From: an uncultured candidate division Zixibacteria bacterium
GTDB lineage: Bacteria > Zixibacteria > MSB-5A5 > UBA10806 > 4484-95
Direction: 5' to 3'
Length of the DNA stretch: 64,000 nt
Assembly (NCBI GenBank): GCA_963668625.2
Contig: CAXXKA010000006.1
Span: forward strand, 576,001-640,000
A program made the position numbers and the translations under genes. The notes below the pieces were generated by a model. It was not told the origin of the DNA and did no database searches. It saw only the letters and a program-made list of their open reading frames with translations. The first letter of the stretch is position 1; every line of letters begins with the position of its first letter. Of the stretch, positions 47,343-58,393 are shown one piece after another.

Positions 47343-48068
47343 ATGGCTGATGAACAATCTGAATTAAACAATGAGGAACAGGAAAACCAGCCGAAAACTC
47401 CGGAGGAGGGGCTGGAGGCTGAAAGTTCCGCAGATGAGCAAACACCGGCCGGTGATGAAAATCTTAATATGCCTGACATGGATTTCGCCAACGGTGAAAA
47501 GGCCGATGATGAGGCCGGGGAGGATCTGAGCGCAGATATTAGCGCTGACACCGGAAGCGACTTCGAGAAGACCGTAAATCCCGAGGATGCCAACGAGGAT
47601 GATGCCGAAGCTGAGATGCTCAAGATGATGGAGCAGAGCAACGTACTCGGTGATGATGAAAAAGTGGTAAATCCCGAGGATGCCAGCGAGGACGATGCGG
47701 AAGCTGAGATGCTCAAGATGATGGAGCAGTCCGCAGGCGCCGCGCCGGAAGAGCCGGTCGTACAGAAAGCCAGTTTCAGCGAATTCAGCGACCCGCCCAA
47801 GCAGGAGCCGAAGAATCTGAATTTGCTCATGGATGTCTCGTTGCCGATATCGATCGAACTCGGTCGTACGGCCATGGCGATCGAAGATATCCTGAATCTG
47901 GGACCTGGTTCGGTTGTCGAACTGGATAAGCTGGCAGGTGAACCGGTGGATTTGCTGGTTAACAATAAGCTTTTAGCAAAAGGTGAAGTAGTAGTAATCG
48001 ATGAGAATTTCGGCGTGCGTATTACCAACATGGTGTCCAAGCCGGATAGGATCAGGAGTTTGCAGTGA
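47343..48068 (+). CDS. fliN: Motor switch protein FliN with a long acidic N-terminus
   Basis: LMDVSL.ISIELG...[15 protein letters not shown]...[14 protein letters not shown]. Confidence 0.9.
47574..47730 (+). repeat. 93-bp in-frame tandem repeat in fliN
   Basis: VNPEDA(N/S)[15 protein letters not shown] twice, starting at 47574 and 47667. Confidence 0.9.
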
Positions 48069-49274: not shown

Positions 49275-49544
49275 ATGGATATGCAATATGTAATTCAACT
49301 CGGACGTTCGGCTATCTACACCACCCTCCTGGTGGCCGGGCCGATGCTGGCTTTCTCCCTGATGATCGGTTTGGTAATCGCGATATTTCAGGCGATAACA
49401 CAGATTCAGGAGATGACTCTGACATTCATCCCCAAGATTATCTCGGTAGCCCTGGCGCTGATTTTATTTCTTCCCTGGATGATGAGTACGGTATTGAGTT
49501 TCACCGCCCAGATATTCAATATGATACCGGCACTGGCGCATTAA
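49275..49544 (+). CDS. fliQ: Export gate FliQ
   Basis: FQAITQIQEMTLTFIPK. Confidence 0.95.
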   Translation: MDMQYVIQLGRSAIYTTLLVAGPMLAFSLMIGLVIAIFQAITQIQEMTLTFIPKIISVALALILFLPWMMSTVLSFTAQIFNMIPALAH

Positions 49545-49594
49545 TCCCGATATCGAAGTACATTTAATATAGCAAGCCGTATCTAATATTCCTC

Positions 49595-49622
49595 TTGACA
49601 TGATTAAATAGTTATTTATATT
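49595..49622 (+). promoter_or_regulatory. sigma70-type promoter of cassette 1 (equivalents at 52018-52045 and 54452-54479)
   Basis: TTGACA-16 nt-TATATT in all three units; TGn extended -10 in units 2 and 3. Confidence 0.65.
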
Positions 49623-49805
49623 GCAATTGAGCAATATCTACAAGAGGACATACTTGACATGATACGGAATACCCCTCCCCATAATATGGAGTAGAAGCGG
49701 TCGCGGCCCGCCATATAATTTTAATATGTATATCAATTTGATATAAGGGGGATATAGAATATTTAAGACGTTTTGGTTTAAATATGCTTTCAAGGAGGCT
49801 AATAA

Positions 49806-50177
49806 ATGTATTTACGATATGCACTGATTGGATTATTAGCAATAGTATTTGCGGCATCAATGGCATTTGCGGATGGCGGATTTATAGGAGATATTTACTA
49901 TAAGGATTGCGATTGTAGTACATCCCCGGATTATGATATCGTTAAAATCAAGGATCGTTCCACAGGACAAGTTGTTTTTGAACAACAAATGATCTACATT
50001 GTCTCGCCTGGTTATTGGACAGGCGCTCAAACATTCCCTCCCGGTTCGTATGATATATGGGTGCAACTTGGGCCAAATTCTGAATGCGATCATGGTGTAG
50101 TAAAAACTGTTATTCATGGGGCAACCACTCAAACTGTCAACCTTACTGTCTTAGGGCCGGTCGAACAGGGGCATTAA
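49806..50177 (+). CDS. Small secreted Cys-containing protein, cassette 1
   Basis: AAGGAGG RBS, signal MYLRYALIGLLAIVFAASMAFA|DG, two paralogues in the window. Confidence 0.85.
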   Translation: MYLRYALIGLLAIVFAASMAFADGGFIGDIYYKDCDCSTSPDYDIVKIKDRSTGQVVFEQQMIYIVSPGYWTGAQTFPPGSYDIWVQLGPNSECDHGVVKTVIHGATTQTVNLTVLGPVEQGH

Positions 50178-50248
50178 ATATTAATCCTATATGTTTACGT
50201 AGTCAGATATTTCTCTGACTACGTATACTTTAAAGATAGGAGATTTGA

Positions 50249-51958
50249 ATGTTTATCAAGCTTTTCATGCGGGTATTAATAGCCTGTTTCATTATATTTG
50301 AATACTTATATGCTCAATCACCTGATTTATTAAATGGCTGGCCCTATATGTTTGGTGACAGTTATAATATTAGGTCTACCCCTGTTTTCTTCGGAAATGC
50401 GTTTAACGATACTCTGGCTATCCTTTTCACCGGCGAACCATCCACAATAAGCAAGTTAAACCTGTGGAACGAATTGTTTGATGGCTGGCCAATTCGAGAG
50501 GACGGTGCCAGATTCAGTTATACGCCAATAGCTGTTGATATAGATCACGACTATAAAGATGAATTTGTTGTCCTGGGATTGATGGATCAATATCTCATAT
50601 ATGTTATTGATGATGATCGTTCTATCATGCCGGGATTTCCCCTGGCTTACGATCATAATAACTTACCTAATGTTTTTGATTTTGATAATGATGGTGAATA
50701 CGAATTAGCCTATCAATCGGTAAGCGAAAGTTTAATTTATTGTGTTGATGGAAACGGCCAAATGGAGCCCGGCTGGCCCGCCGCTTACCCGGCTGACTGG
50801 GAAGGTTTTAACGGCAGGGGCACTATTGGTGATATTAATTTAGATGGCTATAACGAATTCATTATAACCGGATTGAAAAAGATTTATGCCTATCAATATG
50901 ATGGTTCGCTTTTGAATGATTTTTGTTTGGAAACAATCGATACATCTTACTATTTCAATACGAATCGTGGGTGTTGTTGCGCGGATCTCGACGATGATGG
51001 CTATCTAGAATTCCCTTTGGCAGCATCTAAAAGAGTAGGCAATACATTGAATAGCTATGTAGCGATATACGAACATGACGGTCAAATAAAGGATGGCTGG
51101 CCTTTACATTATTACAGCAGTTATGTCTGGATTATGCCTACTCCTTCCGATATTGATGGTAACGGCACAGTTGAGATAGGCTATTCGGAAAACAGCCATA
51201 CGCATTTTGTTGATATTAGCGGTAATCATCTTGCTGGATGGCCAACTGTAATCATGGCGCCTGATAATCGATGCGCTTATGCAATGAGCGATATCATCAT
51301 TGTCGATATCGATGGTGATAGAGATTCGGAGATTTTTTTCGGCTGTAACTTTAATTATCTTGATCCAGAGTGGGGATTCTGCAGTTACTTGAATGGCTGC
51401 GATCACCATGGGCAGCCGCTTGAAGGTTTTCCTCTAAGAATTCGGGGAATGTCGGATTATCTTCCACCAGCATTTTTAAGAAATAAGGTCGATGGAAGGC
51501 TGCTAATTGGGATTTCCTCACAGAACACATATGATCCCGGAGTCGATACCGCATATCTGGAGGTCTTCCAGTTTCCCGACTCAACCGGCCCGCCCGATCA
51601 ATGGCCGATGCAGGGGCATGATAACCTGATGACGCGTAACTACAATTTCGTCGATCATGTCACCGCTATCCGGGATGATGAGCAACCGCTGCCTAAAAGC
51701 TATATCCTGACTCAGAACTACCCCAACCCGTTCAATGCTGCTACCACGATTGATTTCGCGCTGCCCAAACCCGAGCATGTCACGATTACGGTATACGATA
51801 TCCTCGGCCGCAGGGTAGAGGCGCTGGTGGATGAGGCATTACCGGCGGGGAACCATCAAGTGGCATGGCAAGCTGATGACTACGCCTCGGGGATCTATTT
51901 TTATCGCATGGAGGTCGGGGATTTGACGCTGAGCCGGAAGATGCTTTTGATTAAGTAA
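50249..51958 (+). CDS. Secreted FG-GAP/VCBS-repeat protein with a C-terminal sorting domain, cassette 1
   Basis: Six D.D.DG..E-type repeats alternating with GWP/GFP, WPMQGHD, QNYPNPFN domain. Confidence 0.88.
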   Translation: MFIKLFMRVLIACFIIFEYLYAQSPDLLNGWPYMFGDSYNIRSTPVFFGNAFNDTLAILFTGEPSTISKLNLWNELFDGWPIREDGARFSYTPIAVDIDHDYKDEFVVLGLMDQYLIYVIDDDRSIMPGFPLAYDHNNLPNVFDFDNDGEYELAYQSVSESLIYCVDGNGQMEPGWPAAYPADWEGFNGRGTIGDINLDGYNEFIITGLKKIYAYQYDGSLLNDFCLETIDTSYYFNTNRGCCCADLDDDGYLEFPLAASKRVGNTLNSYVAIYEHDGQIKDGWPLHYYSSYVWIMPTPSDIDGNGTVEIGYSENSHTHFVDISGNHLAGWPTVIMAPDNRCAYAMSDIIIVDIDGDRDSEIFFGCNFNYLDPEWGFCSYLNGCDHHGQPLEGFPLRIRGMSDYLPPAFLRNKVDGRLLIGISSQNTYDPGVDTAYLEVFQFPDSTGPPDQWPMQGHDNLMTRNYNFVDHVTAIRDDEQPLPKSYILTQNYPNPFNAATTIDFALPKPEHVTITVYDILGRRVEALVDEALPAGNHQVAWQADDYASGIYFYRMEVGDLTLSRKMLLIK

Positions 51959-52231
51959 CCGCATTAATTCCGATATTCAAGTACATTTAATATAGTAAGC
52001 CGCATCTAATATTCTTCTTGACATGTTTGTTAAGGCTGTTATATTGCTGTTAAGTACAAATCATCACGAAGGACAAACTTGACATGAACCGGCATAACCC
52101 CCCCCATTATATGGAGTTTATCCGTTCGCGGCCCGCCGTGTGATTATAATCCGTGTATCGATTTGGCATAAGGGGGATATAGAATAGTCAATAGTTTTTG
52201 GTCATACGATTTCTTTTAAGGAGGCAAACCA

Positions 52232-52609
52232 ATGTATTTACGATATGCACTGATTGGATTATTAGCAATAGTATTTACTGCATCAATGGCATTTGCGGAT
52301 GGCGGATTTCATGGAACAGTCAGCTATAGAGATTGTGAATGCCATTCTGGATCATGGGATAATGTCAGGATTGTAAATGATGCAACAGGTGCTGAACACA
52401 TTGCTCGTATTCATCTTACTTATCCTACATCAGGTACTTATGGGACACAACATACGACCTTCCCCGAAGGCTATTATTCAATATCCGTAGTACTTGGAGA
52501 CGGTTCTGATTGTGATCACAGCTATGTTCAGAAGGTTTATCATTCGGATGATCCAAACGACCAAACAGTTGATTTGGTGGTATTTGGCCCAACAAGTCAA
52601 CCCCACTAG
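52232..52609 (+). CDS. Small secreted Cys-containing protein, cassette 2
   Basis: Same signal peptide, divergent mature region. Confidence 0.85.
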   Translation: MYLRYALIGLLAIVFTASMAFADGGFHGTVSYRDCECHSGSWDNVRIVNDATGAEHIARIHLTYPTSGTYGTQHTTFPEGYYSISVVLGDGSDCDHSYVQKVYHSDDPNDQTVDLVVFGPTSQPH

Positions 52610-52682
52610 GATTTTATATCTATAAGGTCGCTTTTCTATTGAAAAGCGACCTTTATGAATTAATTTATTAGGAGGCCGAATA

Positions 52683-54392
52683 ATGAAAGATGTATCAAAA
52701 CTTGTAATTTTAATTCTATTAGCTAATACATTAGCGGTTTGCCAAGCTCCAGATTTACTGCTTGGATGGCCATACCGATGTGAAACTGGTTTAGGCTCTG
52801 TGGTAGTTACACCCAGGTTTGCAGAGCAAGATTCATTTGCGCTTTATTATAACAATCGTAATGGTGAAATCATTAAATTTCGCAGGGACAACTCATACTA
52901 TCCAAACTGGCCATTCGTAGAACCTGATGTTCCTTTTCTCCATACATCGATTTTGGCCGATGTTGATAATGATAGTATACAGGAGTTTATAGTCAATTCA
53001 TCTGATTATTTATTCATAGTTGATGATACGGGCGAATTATTATTCAACAGCCCCTACTACCTTGAAAATACATCCTCGGTTTCAATGGCAGATTATGACT
53101 CGGATGGAGAGTATGAGTTTATATGTTTTTCTCGTCAGCAACGAGAGATATATTGTACAGATATATATGGAAATAGTCAGGCAGGTTGGCCAGTGACGCT
53201 GCCAGAGGATGCATGGATTTCTATAGATGGAGCCGGTTCAATCGGTGATTTGGATGATGACGGCTATTTGGAAATAGTGATTCGCGGCTTTGATAATATC
53301 TATGCATATCGTTGTAACGGAGAGATGCAACCTGGTTTTCCTATTGAAATTATTGATACGGTATATAGCTACCTGGATTGGCATGGGCCATCTTTAGCCG
53401 ATCTTGATAACGATGGCAAATTGGAGATAATTACCGCCGCATGTACTCAAGTTGATTTGCCTTGCAGTTCATATATAGCGATTTATTGTTATGACGGCAG
53501 TCTTATGGAAAACTGGCCTAAATATTATAACGATAATACTCAAATTTTTCAGGTTCCCACCGTTGCTGATATTAATAATGATGGTCTATTGGAAATAGGT
53601 TTTACATTAGCTAATGAAAATGAAGGGGGGTTGTACTTTCTTGACATATACGGAGATATTTTGCCCGGTTGGCCTTCATATATTGTAGATACTACAGGAT
53701 GGCCGGTTATCTTCGAGTCTGATATAATCGTAGTTGATATTGATGGCGACAACGATTGCGAGATTTTTGGAGATTTTAATGTTGCTTTTCCTGATAGCAG
53801 TGGGCATGGATACTACAGTAAACTGTTTGGCTTAGATCATTTGGGGAATTTATTAAGCGGTTTTCCTATAATCGTTGAAGATGTTTCACTGTCTACACCT
53901 CCATCATTTCACCTCGATTCTAATTATAGAATGTTAATGGGGCTAAACTCTGCACATTATTATGTTGAGCAAGAAATAGACTCAGTATTTGTTGAGGTCT
54001 TCCAATTCCCCGATTCCACCGGCCCGCCTGACCAATGGCCGATGCAGGGGCATGATAATTTGATGACGCGTAATTACAATTTCGTAGATCGTGTCACCGC
54101 TATCCGGGATGATGAGCAACCGCTGCCTAAAAGCTATATCCTGACTCAGAACTACCCCAACCCGTTCAATGCCGCTACCACGATTGATTTCGCGCTGCCC
54201 AAACCCGAGCATGTCACGATTACGGTATACGATATCCTCGGCCGCAGGGTAGAGGCGCTGGTGGATGAGACATTACCGGCGGGTAACCATCAGGCGCTAT
54301 GGCAGGCTGATGATTACGCCTCGGGGATGTATTTTTATCGCATGGAGGCGGGGGATTTGACGCTGAGCCGGAAGATGTTGCTGATTAAGTAA
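52683..54392 (+). CDS. Secreted FG-GAP/VCBS-repeat protein with a C-terminal sorting domain, cassette 2
   Basis: Same architecture as 50249-51958. Confidence 0.88.
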   Translation: MKDVSKLVILILLANTLAVCQAPDLLLGWPYRCETGLGSVVVTPRFAEQDSFALYYNNRNGEIIKFRRDNSYYPNWPFVEPDVPFLHTSILADVDNDSIQEFIVNSSDYLFIVDDTGELLFNSPYYLENTSSVSMADYDSDGEYEFICFSRQQREIYCTDIYGNSQAGWPVTLPEDAWISIDGAGSIGDLDDDGYLEIVIRGFDNIYAYRCNGEMQPGFPIEIIDTVYSYLDWHGPSLADLDNDGKLEIITAACTQVDLPCSSYIAIYCYDGSLMENWPKYYNDNTQIFQVPTVADINNDGLLEIGFTLANENEGGLYFLDIYGDILPGWPSYIVDTTGWPVIFESDIIVVDIDGDNDCEIFGDFNVAFPDSSGHGYYSKLFGLDHLGNLLSGFPIIVEDVSLSTPPSFHLDSNYRMLMGLNSAHYYVEQEIDSVFVEVFQFPDSTGPPDQWPMQGHDNLMTRNYNFVDRVTAIRDDEQPLPKSYILTQNYPNPFNAATTIDFALPKPEHVTITVYDILGRRVEALVDETLPAGNHQALWQADDYASGMYFYRMEAGDLTLSRKMLLIK

Positions 54393-54665
54393 CCGCATTA
54401 ATTCCGATATTCAAGTACATTTAATATAGTAAGCCGCATCTAATATTCTTCTTGACATGTTTGTTAAGGTTGCTATATTGCTGTTAAGTACAAATCATCA
54501 CGAAGGACAAACTTGACATGAACCGGCATAACCCCCCCCATTATATGGAGTTTATCCGTTCGCGGCCCGCCGTGTGATTATAATCCGTGTATCGATTTGG
54601 CATAAGGGGGATATAGAATAGTCAATAGTTTTTGGTCATACGATTTCTTTTAAGGAGGCAAACCA

Positions 54666-55064
54666 ATGTATTTACGATATGCACTGATTGGATTATTAGC
54701 GGTATTATTCACGGCATCAATGGCGGCAGCGGATGGTCATTTTACAGGAGCTGTTTTATTCCCGAAACTCTGGACTACTGATTGTGAGTGGGAATCTGAA
54801 ATGTATGTGTATGTCTACAACGTGCTCACACCGGGGAACCGGGACAGGTATCTGGTTTCCTGTTGTTATTGCCCGACCCCTGATTACGAGCACGGTATGT
54901 TTACGACCGCAGATTATCCGCCGGGAACTTACGTATTTGAGTTAATTTTACCTGCAAGCTCGGATTGCTATGTGACGAAACCTGATCCTCAATTTGTCCA
55001 TGGCATGGCCAATCAATCTATTTCTATAAAGGTTGAGCCCAGAACCCAGGGACAACCAGATTAA
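54666..55064 (+). CDS. Small secreted Cys-containing protein, cassette 3
   Basis: Same signal start, most divergent mature region, with CCYC. Confidence 0.85.
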   Translation: MYLRYALIGLLAVLFTASMAAADGHFTGAVLFPKLWTTDCEWESEMYVYVYNVLTPGNRDRYLVSCCYCPTPDYEHGMFTTADYPPGTYVFELILPASSDCYVTKPDPQFVHGMANQSISIKVEPRTQGQPD

Positions 55065-55149
55065 CTTTAATTATTAACATTATGCCGCCGGTATTATTAC
55101 CGGCGGCATTATTACAAATATGTAAGGAGATGGTACGATAAAAGCATCT

Positions 55150-55350
55150 TGCTAATCTATTCTGTTGGTGTTAGAGCTTCGGTAATGAATTTCTAACTGG
55201 AGCGGATAGGTTATAGGCTGAACTGAATGCTTGAGGCCAGACCTCGTAAAGGAGATTAATCAGACCTGTAACCGAATTGCCACCATAAGGCAAAGACCTT
55301 GAATAGGAGTTTGGTAGGCGCCGACAGAGAGTCTGCTCCAGTGATAACCA
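55150..55350 (+). ncRNA. Putative bridge RNA of the second IS110 (ends approximate)
   Basis: CTGAATGCT-tGAGG..agaCCTCg-TAAAGGAG (55223-55254) and TTGCCACCA-tAAGG..agaCCTTg-AATAGGAG (55277-55309). Confidence 0.65.
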
Positions 55351-55367
55351 TAGAATGGAGCAAGAAG

Positions 55368-56381
55368 ATGAGGTACTTAGGAGTAGACCTTCACACAAAC
55401 AGTTTGACCGTGTGTTACCTGACAGCCGGTGGTCGGGAGAGGATCAAGGAGTATCGGCTAAAGGATCTAAAGGAATTTAAACGAGGATTAAAAAAGACGG
55501 ATTGTGTAGCGGTTGAGGCCACTGGCAACACTCGTTATTTCGTTGATGAGATATCGCATTTGGTCAAGCGAGTTGTTGTCGTCGATCCGAACAAATTTGA
55601 GATAATCAAATCATCAGTCAGTAAGACGGATGAAAACGATGCCAGGAACTTAGCCTATTTTATGAGCAAAGACATGTTGCCGAAAGCCCGATTAAAGACG
55701 AAAGATAAAGCGCAGATCAGTTCACTTGTTGGGACACGGGACAAGCTGGTCAAGTTACGTACAGCTTTGAAGAATAAAATACACAACATACTCAATCATC
55801 ATGGTATCAAGAGTAAAAAGGAGGCCTACTCCAGCAACAAGAGTTTGGAGCGGGTTCTAAAGATGAATTTTGATGAGGTTGTTTCTGTTGAGCTTGAGGT
55901 ATTGGTTGATCAGATTCGCAGTTTGAATGAGGGGATAAAAAAGCTGGACAAACAGATAGAGGATCAGGGTCGCAAGTTGAACGGGCATAAGAACCTGACC
56001 AGCATCAAAGGAATCGGCAGCAAATCAGCTACAGTGTTGCTTTCGGTAATTGGTGATGTTGCTGATTTTTCGGACAAAGATAAATTGGCCTCATATTTTG
56101 GCGTAGTGCCGCGAGTTTCCAATTCAAACGAGATTCAGCATCATGGTCGGATTACCAAGCGTGGTTCTAAGATTGGTCGGACTACACTGGTGCAGTGTAC
56201 GCTTGTTGCCATACGATATAACCATTACTTGAGTAAATATTACAATCGTATAAAAAACCGTCGTGGCAGCGGTAAGGCTATCATTGCCACAGCCAGAAAA
56301 TTACTGGGAATAATCTATGACACCTTGAAAAATAATTGGGTGTTTGAAGATTTCCCTAACTTTGTGTTAGCAAACAGATAA
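55368..56381 (+). CDS. IS110 family DEDD recombinase/transposase
   Basis: YLGVDLH, VEATG, KTDENDA, SIKGIG, SYFGVVP..SNS; ATG 55368 follows GGAG. Confidence 0.95.
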   Translation: MRYLGVDLHTNSLTVCYLTAGGRERIKEYRLKDLKEFKRGLKKTDCVAVEATGNTRYFVDEISHLVKRVVVVDPNKFEIIKSSVSKTDENDARNLAYFMSKDMLPKARLKTKDKAQISSLVGTRDKLVKLRTALKNKIHNILNHHGIKSKKEAYSSNKSLERVLKMNFDEVVSVELEVLVDQIRSLNEGIKKLDKQIEDQGRKLNGHKNLTSIKGIGSKSATVLLSVIGDVADFSDKDKLASYFGVVPRVSNSNEIQHHGRITKRGSKIGRTTLVQCTLVAIRYNHYLSKYYNRIKNRRGSGKAIIATARKLLGIIYDTLKNNWVFEDFPNFVLANR

Positions 56382-56419
56382 CTGAAATTTGGAGTAGACT
56401 TTTATCATAGGAGAGTTTT

Positions 56420-58159
56420 ATGAATAGAATAATATTATTGGCCGTGTTGCTGTTTATATTCAGCTTCTCGGATTCATTCTCTCAGGTGCCTGAACTTCTA
56501 GATGGCTGGCCTTATAGCCGTTTGCTAACCTCATACGCCGAACAAAACATTCCGCGGTTTGCATGCGATGCTGATTTAGCGATATTTTACAGCACGCCCT
56601 CAGGCGATAATAATAAATTCCACATGAATGGCTCCTATTACAACGGTTGGCCTGTCTACGAGGATGAAGTTCATATACACGGAAGAATAACGATTGTGGA
56701 TTTGGATCACGATGGTAAGGATGAGTTGGTGGCAAACGGTTATTTCGTTAGTGATATTCCTGCCAGAGTTCTTAATAAACTATATATCATAGATGATGAC
56801 GGCACGATCTTTCCCGATTTTCCAATTATATACAGCACCATAATTTGTCCGAATGTAGCCGATTTCGATGCTGACGGCGAATATGAATTGATATTTTACG
56901 ATGACGAAGTAGAATTAATCTATTGCATCGACAGGTTCGGTAATCCTGAACCGGGCTGGCCGGTGGATTTACCTGATGATATTTATCACCAGTCCGTGAA
57001 CGGTGGTGCTGCGGTTGGTGACCTTGATCTTGATGGATTCTTAGAGTATATAGTTAAAAGTAATGACTGTGTTTATGCCTTTCGCTATGATGGGACAATG
57101 ATCGAGGATTTCCTTATAAAAACCATTGAATATCCTTATTTTTTCGAGGCTCATAACGCTGTTACTCTTGGTGATGTTGATTTTGATGGGTATCTGGAGA
57201 TAGTTTTATCGGCACAGAGAGTCACGCTGGATTCCATCGCGAGTTATGTTGCGATTTACGAACATACCGGAGAGCCAAAGGAGGGCTGGCCGATCATGTT
57301 CCCCGATGCTTATGATTGGAATATGCCGACGATCGCGGATATCAATTCTGATGGTATCCCCGAAATAGGCTTTTCAATGGATGTATATACTTATTTTGTT
57401 GATGTTGATGGCAATCCTCTTGATGGTTGGCCGGTAGAATTTTATAAGCCGGATGGCCGGCCAAGAATGCCGATGTCGGATATAATAGCCGTTGATGTAG
57501 ATGGTGACAATGATTGTGAGATATTTTTCGATTTCAACACTCAGTACTGGGATCCTGAAAATGAAGATATTTACAGTTGTTTCTATGGCTCGGATCATCA
57601 CGGGCAAGATTTGCCCGGATATCCAGTGATTGTCGAAGGTTCCAGCGTGGGGTGTCCGCCAATTTTCCATTTTGACAGTTCTGATAATCAATATTATATG
57701 GCGCTTAGCACTCTGGTGGGATATCCCGATAGTATTTATACGATAGATTCGGTATATCTGGAGGTCTTCCAGTTTCCCGATTCCACCGGGCCGCCCGATC
57801 AATGGCCGATGCAGGGGCATGATAATTTGATGACGCGTAATTACAATTTCGTAGATCGTGTCACCGCTATCCGGGATGATGAGCAACCGCTGCCTAAAAG
57901 CTATATCCTGACTCAGAACTACCCCAACCCGTTCAATGCCGCTACCACGATTGATTTCGCGCTGCCCAAACCCGAGCATGTCACGATTACGGTATACGAT
58001 ATCCTCGGCCGCAGGGTAGAGGTGCTGGTGGATGAGACATTACCGGCGGGTAACCATCAGGCGCTATGGCAGGCTGATGATTACGCCTCGGGGATGTATT
58101 TTTATCGCATGGAGGCGGGTGATTTGACGCTGAGCCGGAAGATGTTGCTGATTAAGTAG
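56420..58159 (+). CDS. Secreted FG-GAP/VCBS-repeat protein with a C-terminal sorting domain, cassette 3
   Basis: Same architecture; RBS regenerated by the IS end. Confidence 0.88.
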   Translation: MNRIILLAVLLFIFSFSDSFSQVPELLDGWPYSRLLTSYAEQNIPRFACDADLAIFYSTPSGDNNKFHMNGSYYNGWPVYEDEVHIHGRITIVDLDHDGKDELVANGYFVSDIPARVLNKLYIIDDDGTIFPDFPIIYSTIICPNVADFDADGEYELIFYDDEVELIYCIDRFGNPEPGWPVDLPDDIYHQSVNGGAAVGDLDLDGFLEYIVKSNDCVYAFRYDGTMIEDFLIKTIEYPYFFEAHNAVTLGDVDFDGYLEIVLSAQRVTLDSIASYVAIYEHTGEPKEGWPIMFPDAYDWNMPTIADINSDGIPEIGFSMDVYTYFVDVDGNPLDGWPVEFYKPDGRPRMPMSDIIAVDVDGDNDCEIFFDFNTQYWDPENEDIYSCFYGSDHHGQDLPGYPVIVEGSSVGCPPIFHFDSSDNQYYMALSTLVGYPDSIYTIDSVYLEVFQFPDSTGPPDQWPMQGHDNLMTRNYNFVDRVTAIRDDEQPLPKSYILTQNYPNPFNAATTIDFALPKPEHVTITVYDILGRRVEVLVDETLPAGNHQALWQADDYASGMYFYRMEAGDLTLSRKMLLIK

Positions 58160-58377: not shown

Positions 58378-58393
58378 GGGCACAAGCCTTGCT
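58378..58393 (+). promoter_or_regulatory. sigma54 promoter of fliR-flhBAFG
   Basis: GGGCAC-AAGCC-TTGCT; GGAA-N5-TTCC-like sites at 58246 and 58269. Confidence 0.7.

Follow-up and report, generated by a model that had tools for sequence, protein, structure and literature searches.

Three tandem small protein-propeller gene pairs between near-identical arms suggest an undescribed variable recognition system in an uncultured Zixibacteria bacterium

The window analyzed here is a stretch of 64,000 nt (contig CAXXKA010000006.1, contig positions 576,001-640,000, assembly GCA_963668625.2) from the genome of an uncultured candidate division Zixibacteria bacterium, labelled G000 hereafter; coordinates given without a contig name refer to this window. 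An array of three tandem units (S1/L1, S2/L2, and S3/L3) is located between the genes fliQ (49275-49544) and fliR, all on the forward strand. Each unit harbors a promoter, a leader, a gene for a small secreted protein (S), a hairpin, and a gene for a protein of about 570 aa (L), made up of a beta-propeller and a sorting domain of the type IX secretion system (T9SS), as reported in Table 1. This layout, which an earlier reading of the sequence (the original prediction) had described, is borne out by the gene coordinates, the promoter sites, and the hairpins; the three best sigma70-like sites that a promoter scan disclosed in the region are the three unit promoters. The same prediction had overlooked the 1290-bp insertion sequence (IS) lying between S3 and L3, and it contained neither the leader element nor the second family of pairs described below. 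The IS was assigned to the IS110 family on the basis of its DEDD and Transposase_20 domains and of a match to NF033542 (242.7 bits, cut-off 140). Upstream of fliR, positions 58378-58393 are conserved in relatives and are taken by us to be a sigma54-like element; since fliR has its own promoter, the fliQ-fliR gap would be a neutral insertion site.

Table 1. Features of the array (window coordinates) and loci of the second pair family (coordinates on the contigs of G000)
Feature	Coordinates	Strand	Remarks
Unit 1 5' arm	49537..49805	+	starts within the last bases of fliQ; ~81% identity to spacers 2 and 3
Unit 1 promoter, sigma70-like	49595..49622	+	11/12 consensus matches
Leader 1	49659..49746	+	short open reading frame (ORF) MIRNTPPHNME 49659-49694; interrupted C-run 49672-49680
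Leader 1 RGPP codons	49702-49713	+	+1 frame, which ends at 49746
S1	49806..50177	+	123 aa; signal peptide and transthyretin/CnaB-fold domain (predicted), conserved cysteines
S1-L1 intergenic hairpin	50184..50237	+	
L1	50249..51958	+	569 aa; FG-GAP beta-propeller and T9SS type A sorting domain
Junction repeat 1	51560..52299	+	L1 3' arm, 273-bp spacer, S2 signal-peptide codons
Unit 2 promoter, sigma70-like	52018..52045	+	11/12 consensus matches
Leader 2	52084..52171	+	short ORF 52084-52143; C8 run 52098-52105; RGPP codons 52127-52138, +1 frame
S2	52232..52609	+	125 aa, small secreted protein
S2-L2 intergenic hairpin	52624..52653	+	
L2	52683..54392	+	569 aa, propeller and sorting domain
Junction repeat 2	53994..54733	+	
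Unit 3 promoter, sigma70-like	54452..54479	+	11/12 consensus matches
Leader 3	54518..54605	+	short ORF 54518-54577; C8 run 54532-54539; RGPP codons 54561-54572, +1 frame
S3	54666..55064	+	132 aa; most divergent small protein, long branch
Hairpin 3' of S3	55082..55109	+	
IS110-family element	55124..56413	+	1290 bp; inserted at the L3 Shine-Dalgarno site; 11 near-identical genome copies
L3	56420..58159	+	579 aa, propeller and sorting domain; last 399 bp form the third 3' arm
Second pair family (G000)	C1:10223-16172, C5:238488-244316, C6:401708-411166, C6:567415-570213, C10:222441-226480		also L201

The last 399 bp of the three large genes are near-identical, as had been predicted (93.5, 93.5, and 98.0% in pairwise comparisons), and the abrupt switch from divergent to conserved sequence at EVFQFPD is confirmed by the drop of the identity to 0.2-0.5 within 40 bp upstream of this 3' arm. 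The direct repeats of about 700 bp that had been recognized at the two junctions are also real (95.8% identity across 709 nt, 95.0% across 740 nt). Only two sites distinguish spacers 2 and 3 (273 bp each), to both of which the spacer of unit 1 (261 bp) is only ~81% identical. A genome search found arms at such identity nowhere else. The view that the interiors align at the level of motifs only had to be abandoned, given that they encode full-length paralogues (36-43% identity among the propellers and 23-41% among the mature small proteins). Within the array, the synonymous divergence (dS) of the arm is 0.07-0.24 and the interiors are synonymously saturated (proportion of synonymous differences, pS, 0.75-0.83); therefore, the arms were homogenized, or the interiors replaced, long after the divergence of the interiors. 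The GC content at third codon positions is lower in the interiors (0.26-0.44) than in the arm (about 0.65) and in the fli genes (0.55-0.62). An artefactual origin of the repeats, which the original prediction had left to be checked, is excluded, since in two runs of one sample every unique interior forms a contig of its own that breaks off at the arms, has single-copy depth, and shows no mismatches; the window may itself derive from this sample, for which contigs only were analyzed, and these contigs are therefore not independent support, while the runs X3 and X4 mostly cover the IS and conserved portions.

The exchange of interiors between arms can be followed in the relatives. The copies of the genomes G007, G017, and G034 have the 5' and the 3' arms in common, and two chimeric genes were disclosed: in m152c, the propeller is 88% identical to that of G014, its sorting domain being 79-84% identical to those of the paralogues on its own contig and 68% to that of G014; in G011C206, the propeller is 91% identical to that of m146 and the sorting domain 84-85% identical to those of the copies in its own genome. 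Approximately unbiased (AU) tests reject the monophyly of the own-genome propellers both in G011 (p 1.6e-5) and on the contig L152 (p 1.8e-4). Moreover, orthologous yidC sites (yidC itself being 87% identical) flank unrelated alleles, whose propellers and small proteins are 44% and 37% identical, respectively. Thus, in the relatives the arms follow the host genome and the interiors follow allele lineages. Site-specific recombination was considered and is unlikely, since the switch points differ among genomes.

The situation in the array itself leaves room for a simpler explanation, i.e., that the units are ordinary paralogues of T9SS cargo which arose by old duplication in place and drifted in their loops, the arms being kept alike by gene conversion or unequal crossing-over, with neither import of alleles nor a specificity code. 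The AU test does not reject a clade of the three local propellers (p-AU 0.315), the nonsynonymous divergence (dN) is lower than dS, and the repeat unit begins in the stop region of fliQ, as it would after a duplication in place. In addition, 39 of the 208 sorting-domain genes of G000 fall into groups sharing at least 85% identical arm DNA, in tandem and in some cases with unrelated passengers (e.g., C6:472223-478769, C1:523738-529874, and C8:474980-484093). Such an origin accounts neither for the chimeras nor for the replacement of alleles at the yidC site in the relatives; the local propellers are no closer to each other than to those of other families (35-50%), and it is at their predicted contact that both partners vary most (see below). 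On balance, we consider this explanation rather unlikely. The recombination-driven swapping between constant arms that the original prediction had envisaged therefore holds for the relatives and was not recovered in the array. Likewise, its exchangeable module of small protein and propeller agrees with the conserved adjacency of the two genes, the constant 3' arm being shared with other cargo genes: in this genome the 3' arm is a general shuffling handle, and the special part is the two-gene unit with its 5' arm. This genome-wide control suggests that sorting-domain DNA may serve as a general recombination arm shuffling T9SS cargo.

The three large proteins match the T9SS sorting-domain families TIGR04183 (40.6-41.7 bits, cut-off 23) and PF18962 (37-38 bits, cut-off 27) and contain FG-GAP repeats (PF13517, 40-61 bits). 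Their match to NF052323, a family of T9SS-dependent M6-like proteases, reaches 86-123 bits against a cut-off of 600 and covers the C-terminal part only, without the protease domain. The structure model of L is a beta-propeller (predicted local distance difference test, pLDDT, 87) matching known propellers; among solved structures it has only distant FG-GAP relatives, the nearest by sequence being a chain named biofilm matrix protein Bap1. The T9SS components SprA, PorU, and PorV are encoded in the genome above cut-off. None of the three small proteins matches a Pfam or NCBIfam family at E <= 0.1, and no solved relative was found at E <= 0.01; the model (pLDDT 90.6) is a sandwich of the transthyretin/CnaB type, with a best Z of 9.6 (root mean square deviation 2.6 over 89 residues) and with many CnaB and pilin domains matching at Z 7-8. 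A search of the ESM Atlas with S1 and one protein of the second family gave nothing but leads below 0.9, and no toxin family emerged from the Pfam and NCBIfam scans of either partner. As modeled, both folds are those of non-catalytic scaffolds.

The small-protein profile matches 12 of 285 genomes of the phylum, ten of them strongly and all ten in two families, and neither of the two genomes of the same genus; the pair is thus a lineage-restricted family. Among the 151 hits of a protein search with the same profile, several dozen representatives are stand-alone proteins of about 125 aa. No fused longer form was present among 8000 candidates of 241-2000 aa, which is weak evidence, and the long hits of the profile search are partial repeat matches. 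In 17 out of 18 cases, the complete small genes found in genomes are followed by a propeller of the family, and in the remaining one by another FG-GAP cargo; a metagenome scan added 18 loci, including an independent S-L-S-L tandem array on L152. The search of genome contigs with L2 returned 31 loci, nearly all of them sorting-domain matches in other phyla, and none is a family member by its range. As for the site of the array, fliR directly follows fliQ in 16 of the 19 loci of relatives (20 of 30 fliQ matches were taken in, one being the own genome). In the gap of the same-genus genome G001 (L079, G001:C286:2917-7460) two other sorting-domain genes are located, and in G009 (L080, G009:C17) other genes follow fliQ.

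The S1 protein and the propeller of L1 are predicted to bind each other: co-folding gave a score of 0.88 (0.88, 0.71, and 0.88 in the single runs) against 0.00 for the best control, the prediction covering this one cognate pair with unrelated proteins as controls. At least 81% of the contacts recur among the runs, and the partner pLDDT is 83 or higher; 116 of 157 solved pairs and 2 of 215 mismatched ones attained the mark, counts that apply only approximately with our own alignments. When one representative per clade is compared, 18% (L) and 16% (S) of the predicted contact columns are identical, against 46% elsewhere in either protein, and the pooled dN of the interface is about three times that of the remaining sites, in a comparison without a control for exposed non-contact loops. 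Hence, the pair of unit 1 is predicted to bind through the least conserved columns of both partners. Since dN is lower than dS everywhere, positive selection is not shown. The co-evolving cognate pairs of the original prediction are therefore supported as far as adjacency and predicted binding are concerned, and no co-evolution beyond linkage was detected: Mantel tests did not reach significance, with a rho of 0.17 and a p of 0.12 for the S and L distances of 23 pairs (fragments below 330 aligned residues having been dropped). Similarly, the comparison of the two trees proposed in that prediction revealed well-supported small clades in common, as expected from linkage alone, and one incongruence, G017C275, whose small gene groups with that of G007 and whose propeller does not.

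A different reading of the same pair is that of an obligate two-subunit adhesin, in which S would be a structural cap, a chaperone, or a tip subunit, and the variation would reflect environmental ligands or escape from phages rather than self recognition. The CnaB/pilin/transthyretin fold of S is common in adhesin stalks, the adjacency and co-transcription of the two genes are nearly constant, and the relationship of the propeller to the Bap1 chain points in the same direction. Nevertheless, in both proteins the most variable columns point towards the partner and not outward, in a comparison without an exposed-surface control, and the propeller gene can apparently persist alone: small genes are broken at two loci (a frameshift in the first one of G004 and a nonsense codon in L144), and no small gene precedes one propeller of G019 (G019C1) and one on L160. 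We regard an obligate adhesin as doubtful. The contigs L144 and L146 show three differences in 5641 bases, one of the two contigs carrying the nonsense codon in the small gene.

Each unit promoter is followed by a start codon, a C-run, and a GC box whose +1 frame encodes R-G-P-P. Across the family, 28 leaders of at least 200 nt were compared, five others being excluded (four cut by contig ends and one coupled to the upstream gene): R[GAST]PP is encoded in 21 of them, following a short ORF and in most cases accompanied by a C-run, RPPP in five more, and neither in two. This conserved motif exceeds the chance level (a mean of 0.25 and a maximum of 3 out of 28 in shuffled leaders, none of 28 on the reverse strand), even if it was defined on the same leaders, which are related and not independent. 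It occurs in 19 of 1154 other leaders of the genome, ten of which belong to pair cassettes. By itself, the C-run is no general feature of leaders in the genome (14 of 1364), and the phylum-wide pattern of C-run plus R[GA]PP (75 of 285 genomes) is close to the level of the reversed control outside the genomes with pairs and so is uninformative on the range. Run lengths vary among paralogues and genomes (C7-C9 and G7-G12); no C-run indels are listed in the sample contigs, which drop rare variants. In the predicted proteome, RGPP and RAPP do not occur at all, against about six expected occurrences each, and both Rho and EF-P are encoded above cut-off. A conserved leader peptide in frame 0 was considered and dropped, because only the PP codons recur.

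It is known that, in several peptide contexts, an arrest resistant to EF-P can occur at RAPP and RGPP, that they are depleted in proteomes, and that they are found in small ORFs upstream of envelope genes (PMC12992588); that in CruR stalling at RAPP blocks Rho termination (PMC9426467); and that diproline codons of the CCC type provoke +1 frameshifts (PMC12856214). A text search of PMC12992588 returned no mention of frameshift or of Zixibacteria. A translated arrest peptide is not the only way to read the leader, which might instead be a cis-element of DNA or RNA, such as the site of a repressor, of a small RNA, or of a structure formed by the C-run and the GC box. With respect to the start codons, chosen by a script, the motif of the 26 leaders is in the +1 frame in 13, in frame 0 in eight, and in the +2 frame in five, and in none of the three window units is it in frame with the chosen start; two of the 13 leaders of the +1 class have a stop codon ahead of the motif, and its distance from the start codon of the small gene is fixed (-71 to -149). 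The Rfam database gives no match either way (none at E <= 1 for the array). A cis-element would not be expected to show the synonymous variation observed in the motif codons (Arg CGN or AGA, several Pro codons) nor the Shine-Dalgarno-like words preceding most of the short ORFs; furthermore, a single C distinguishes the paralogues m155 and m158 and moves RGPP in and out of frame, and the second family keeps the RxPP reading despite having a G-run. Such a nature of the leader thus seems improbable to us.

The second family of pairs in G000 is unrelated to the first and shows the same layout with G-runs. Its cassette contains a run of seven to twelve G (G7-G12), RSPP at about -89, a gene for a secreted cysteine-containing protein of 140-157 aa, and a gene for a propeller protein of 750-780 aa that ends in a sorting domain; eight small genes are found on four contigs, in tandem on two of them. 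All four of the large partners scanned match Sortilin-Vps10/BNR, and the small-protein profile of the first family does not detect the small proteins of the second. Seven of the 19 leaders matched in the genomic control are leaders of this family. The pattern of G-run plus RSPP was found at eight places in the 285 genomes, and the sole one outside G000 precedes, by inspection, a similar pair in G019. The motif is in frame 0 in two leaders, in the +1 frame in two, and in the +2 frame in three, a variety such as phase variation would give. At L104-L108 and L097 (G034, G025, G239, and G024), more distant propellers of other families (~24-28% identity to L1) are also located behind small secreted proteins, and four of these leaders contain a G-run and RGPP or RSPP.

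The three interiors between near-identical arms suggest an undescribed variable recognition system, and the reading that we favor, with a probability of roughly one half, is that of exchangeable, switchable, allele-specific recognition pairs, whose function is inferred. Each unit would represent an allele of a recognition module that consists of two genes and whose specificity depends on the allele. Of the two products, the large one would be exported and attached to the surface by the T9SS through its sorting domain, as the domain and the machinery indicate, and the Sec-exported small protein, which possibly rides out together with the propeller, would be a cognate ligand or cap that docks to one face of the propeller encoded next to it, as predicted for unit 1. 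Since the contact surfaces change fastest, the alleles would differ in specificity. Ordinary homologous recombination within the constant arms might bring in new alleles, stack them, and replace old ones, the 5' arm comprising promoter, leader, and signal peptide and the 3' arm the last propeller strand and the sorting domain; the same recombination would keep the arms alike. The leader would gate expression: ribosomes may get to RGPP by +1 slippage at CCC-C, or wherever the C-run has lost a base, and the stall at RGPP would let the cassette be expressed through a CruR-like protection from Rho. The likeliest use would be a switchable and variable surface identity, either for kin-specific adhesion or for escape from the attachment of phages or predators.

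Several points weigh against this reading. The contigs of the one sample, in which copy-number variants and excised circles had been proposed as a check, list no strain-level variant, unit-skipping joint, or circle of the array; to this must be added the unrejected monophyly of the local propellers, the sharing of near-identical arms with other cargo genes, the non-significant correlation of distances, the incongruence of G017C275, the propellers devoid of a small gene, the scope of the complex prediction, the interface comparison with its missing loop control, the low dN, and, for the leader, the related sequences on which the motif was defined, the start codons chosen by a script, and the two stop codons ahead of the motif. 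It should also be considered that the explanations discussed above are not mutually exclusive. A broader and more tentative proposal, to which we would give somewhat less than an even chance, is that a new class exists, in which at least two unrelated pairs share one design, i.e., recombination arms, a secreted key that fits no T9SS-displayed lock but its own, and, in the leader, a slippery C- or G-run that determines whether ribosomes get to an RxPP arrest motif, as a new way of phase-varying or tuning expression.

Some observations made in the same genome concern elements other than the pairs. All the 11 IS110 copies of G000 are inserted at the Shine-Dalgarno sequence AGGAG just 5' of a start codon, with restoration at the right end of the element, which resembles the situation at the IS900-type target; one copy also interrupts a pair of the second family on contig C10. 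Three tandem genes for lipoprotein-like proteins of 317 aa with the same start and end sequences (C5:246162-249165) represent either a recent amplification or an assembly artefact. In the window, a fliN-like gene (47574-47729) contains a 63-nt direct repeat, spaced at 93 nt, in the part encoding an acidic extension of the N-terminus.

In agreement with the original prediction, which knew of no described system with this layout, the literature searches aimed at it returned no description of such paired cassettes, and the motif searches gave papers on arrest peptides. If the favored reading is true, an uncultured phylum would gain a non-toxin, T9SS-based system of cognate pairs, whose dozens of natural alleles would lend themselves to studies of how a small beta-sandwich and a propeller evolve specificity for each other. 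In the leader, two known devices, homopolymer runs prone to slippage and stalling of the RAPP type, would be combined to form a new switch, which could be tested in Escherichia coli with a 150-base reporter; surveys of annotated in-frame proteins would overlook such leaders.

The array resembles T9SS type A cargo with an FG-GAP propeller (PF13517 with PF18962/TIGR04183, and the C-terminal part of NF052323) in its propeller, in its sorting domain, and in the presence of SprA, PorU, and PorV; unlike the M6-like proteins of NF052323, its propellers lack the protease domain, are paired with a separate small protein belonging to no family, and are embedded in cassettes with arms and a leader. In the polymorphic toxin-immunity arrays (CdiA-CT/CdiI, Rhs, and MafB/MafI), a variable cognate pair lies between conserved arms, in tandem, and is exchanged by homologous recombination. 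The array shares with them the variable pair, the conserved arms, the tandem stacking, and the exchange, the last being seen in relatives; it differs in that no toxin domain was found (another activity being possible), both partners are secreted, the route is the T9SS rather than the T5SS or T6SS, and every unit has its own promoter, so that there are no silent orphan modules. In Proteus mirabilis IdsD/IdsE and in myxobacterial TraA/TraB, adjacent genes encode proteins with allele-specific binding via variable regions. The genes of the array are likewise adjacent and allele-specific binding is proposed for their products, whose folds and secretion route are unrelated to those of Ids and Tra, and there is no evidence here of cell-to-cell transfer or behavioral output. 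In homopolymer-tract phase variation, the run is located in the coding sequence or in the promoter spacer; in the array it would gate a leader arrest motif instead. The C7-C9 or G7-G12 runs setting the reading frame are shared with that phase variation and with CCC-C +1 frameshifting (PMC12856214). Finally, with the RAPP/RGPP upstream ORFs, i.e., CruR (PMC9426467) and ApdA/ApdP with the related survey (PMC12992588), the leaders share R-[AG]-P-P at a short ORF upstream of envelope genes (in frame with the chosen start in eight of 26 leaders), the proteome depletion, and Rho. The ORFs covered by the survey correspond to small proteins that are annotated and frequently secreted or bound to the membrane, and their motif is in frame close to the C-terminus (PMC12992588), whereas in the array family the ORFs have 10-40 codons and the motif usually lies out of frame, following a C- or G-run. 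The cassettes would function in the manner of polymorphic cognate-pair cassettes and RAPP-type leaders, but as tested they are members of neither group.

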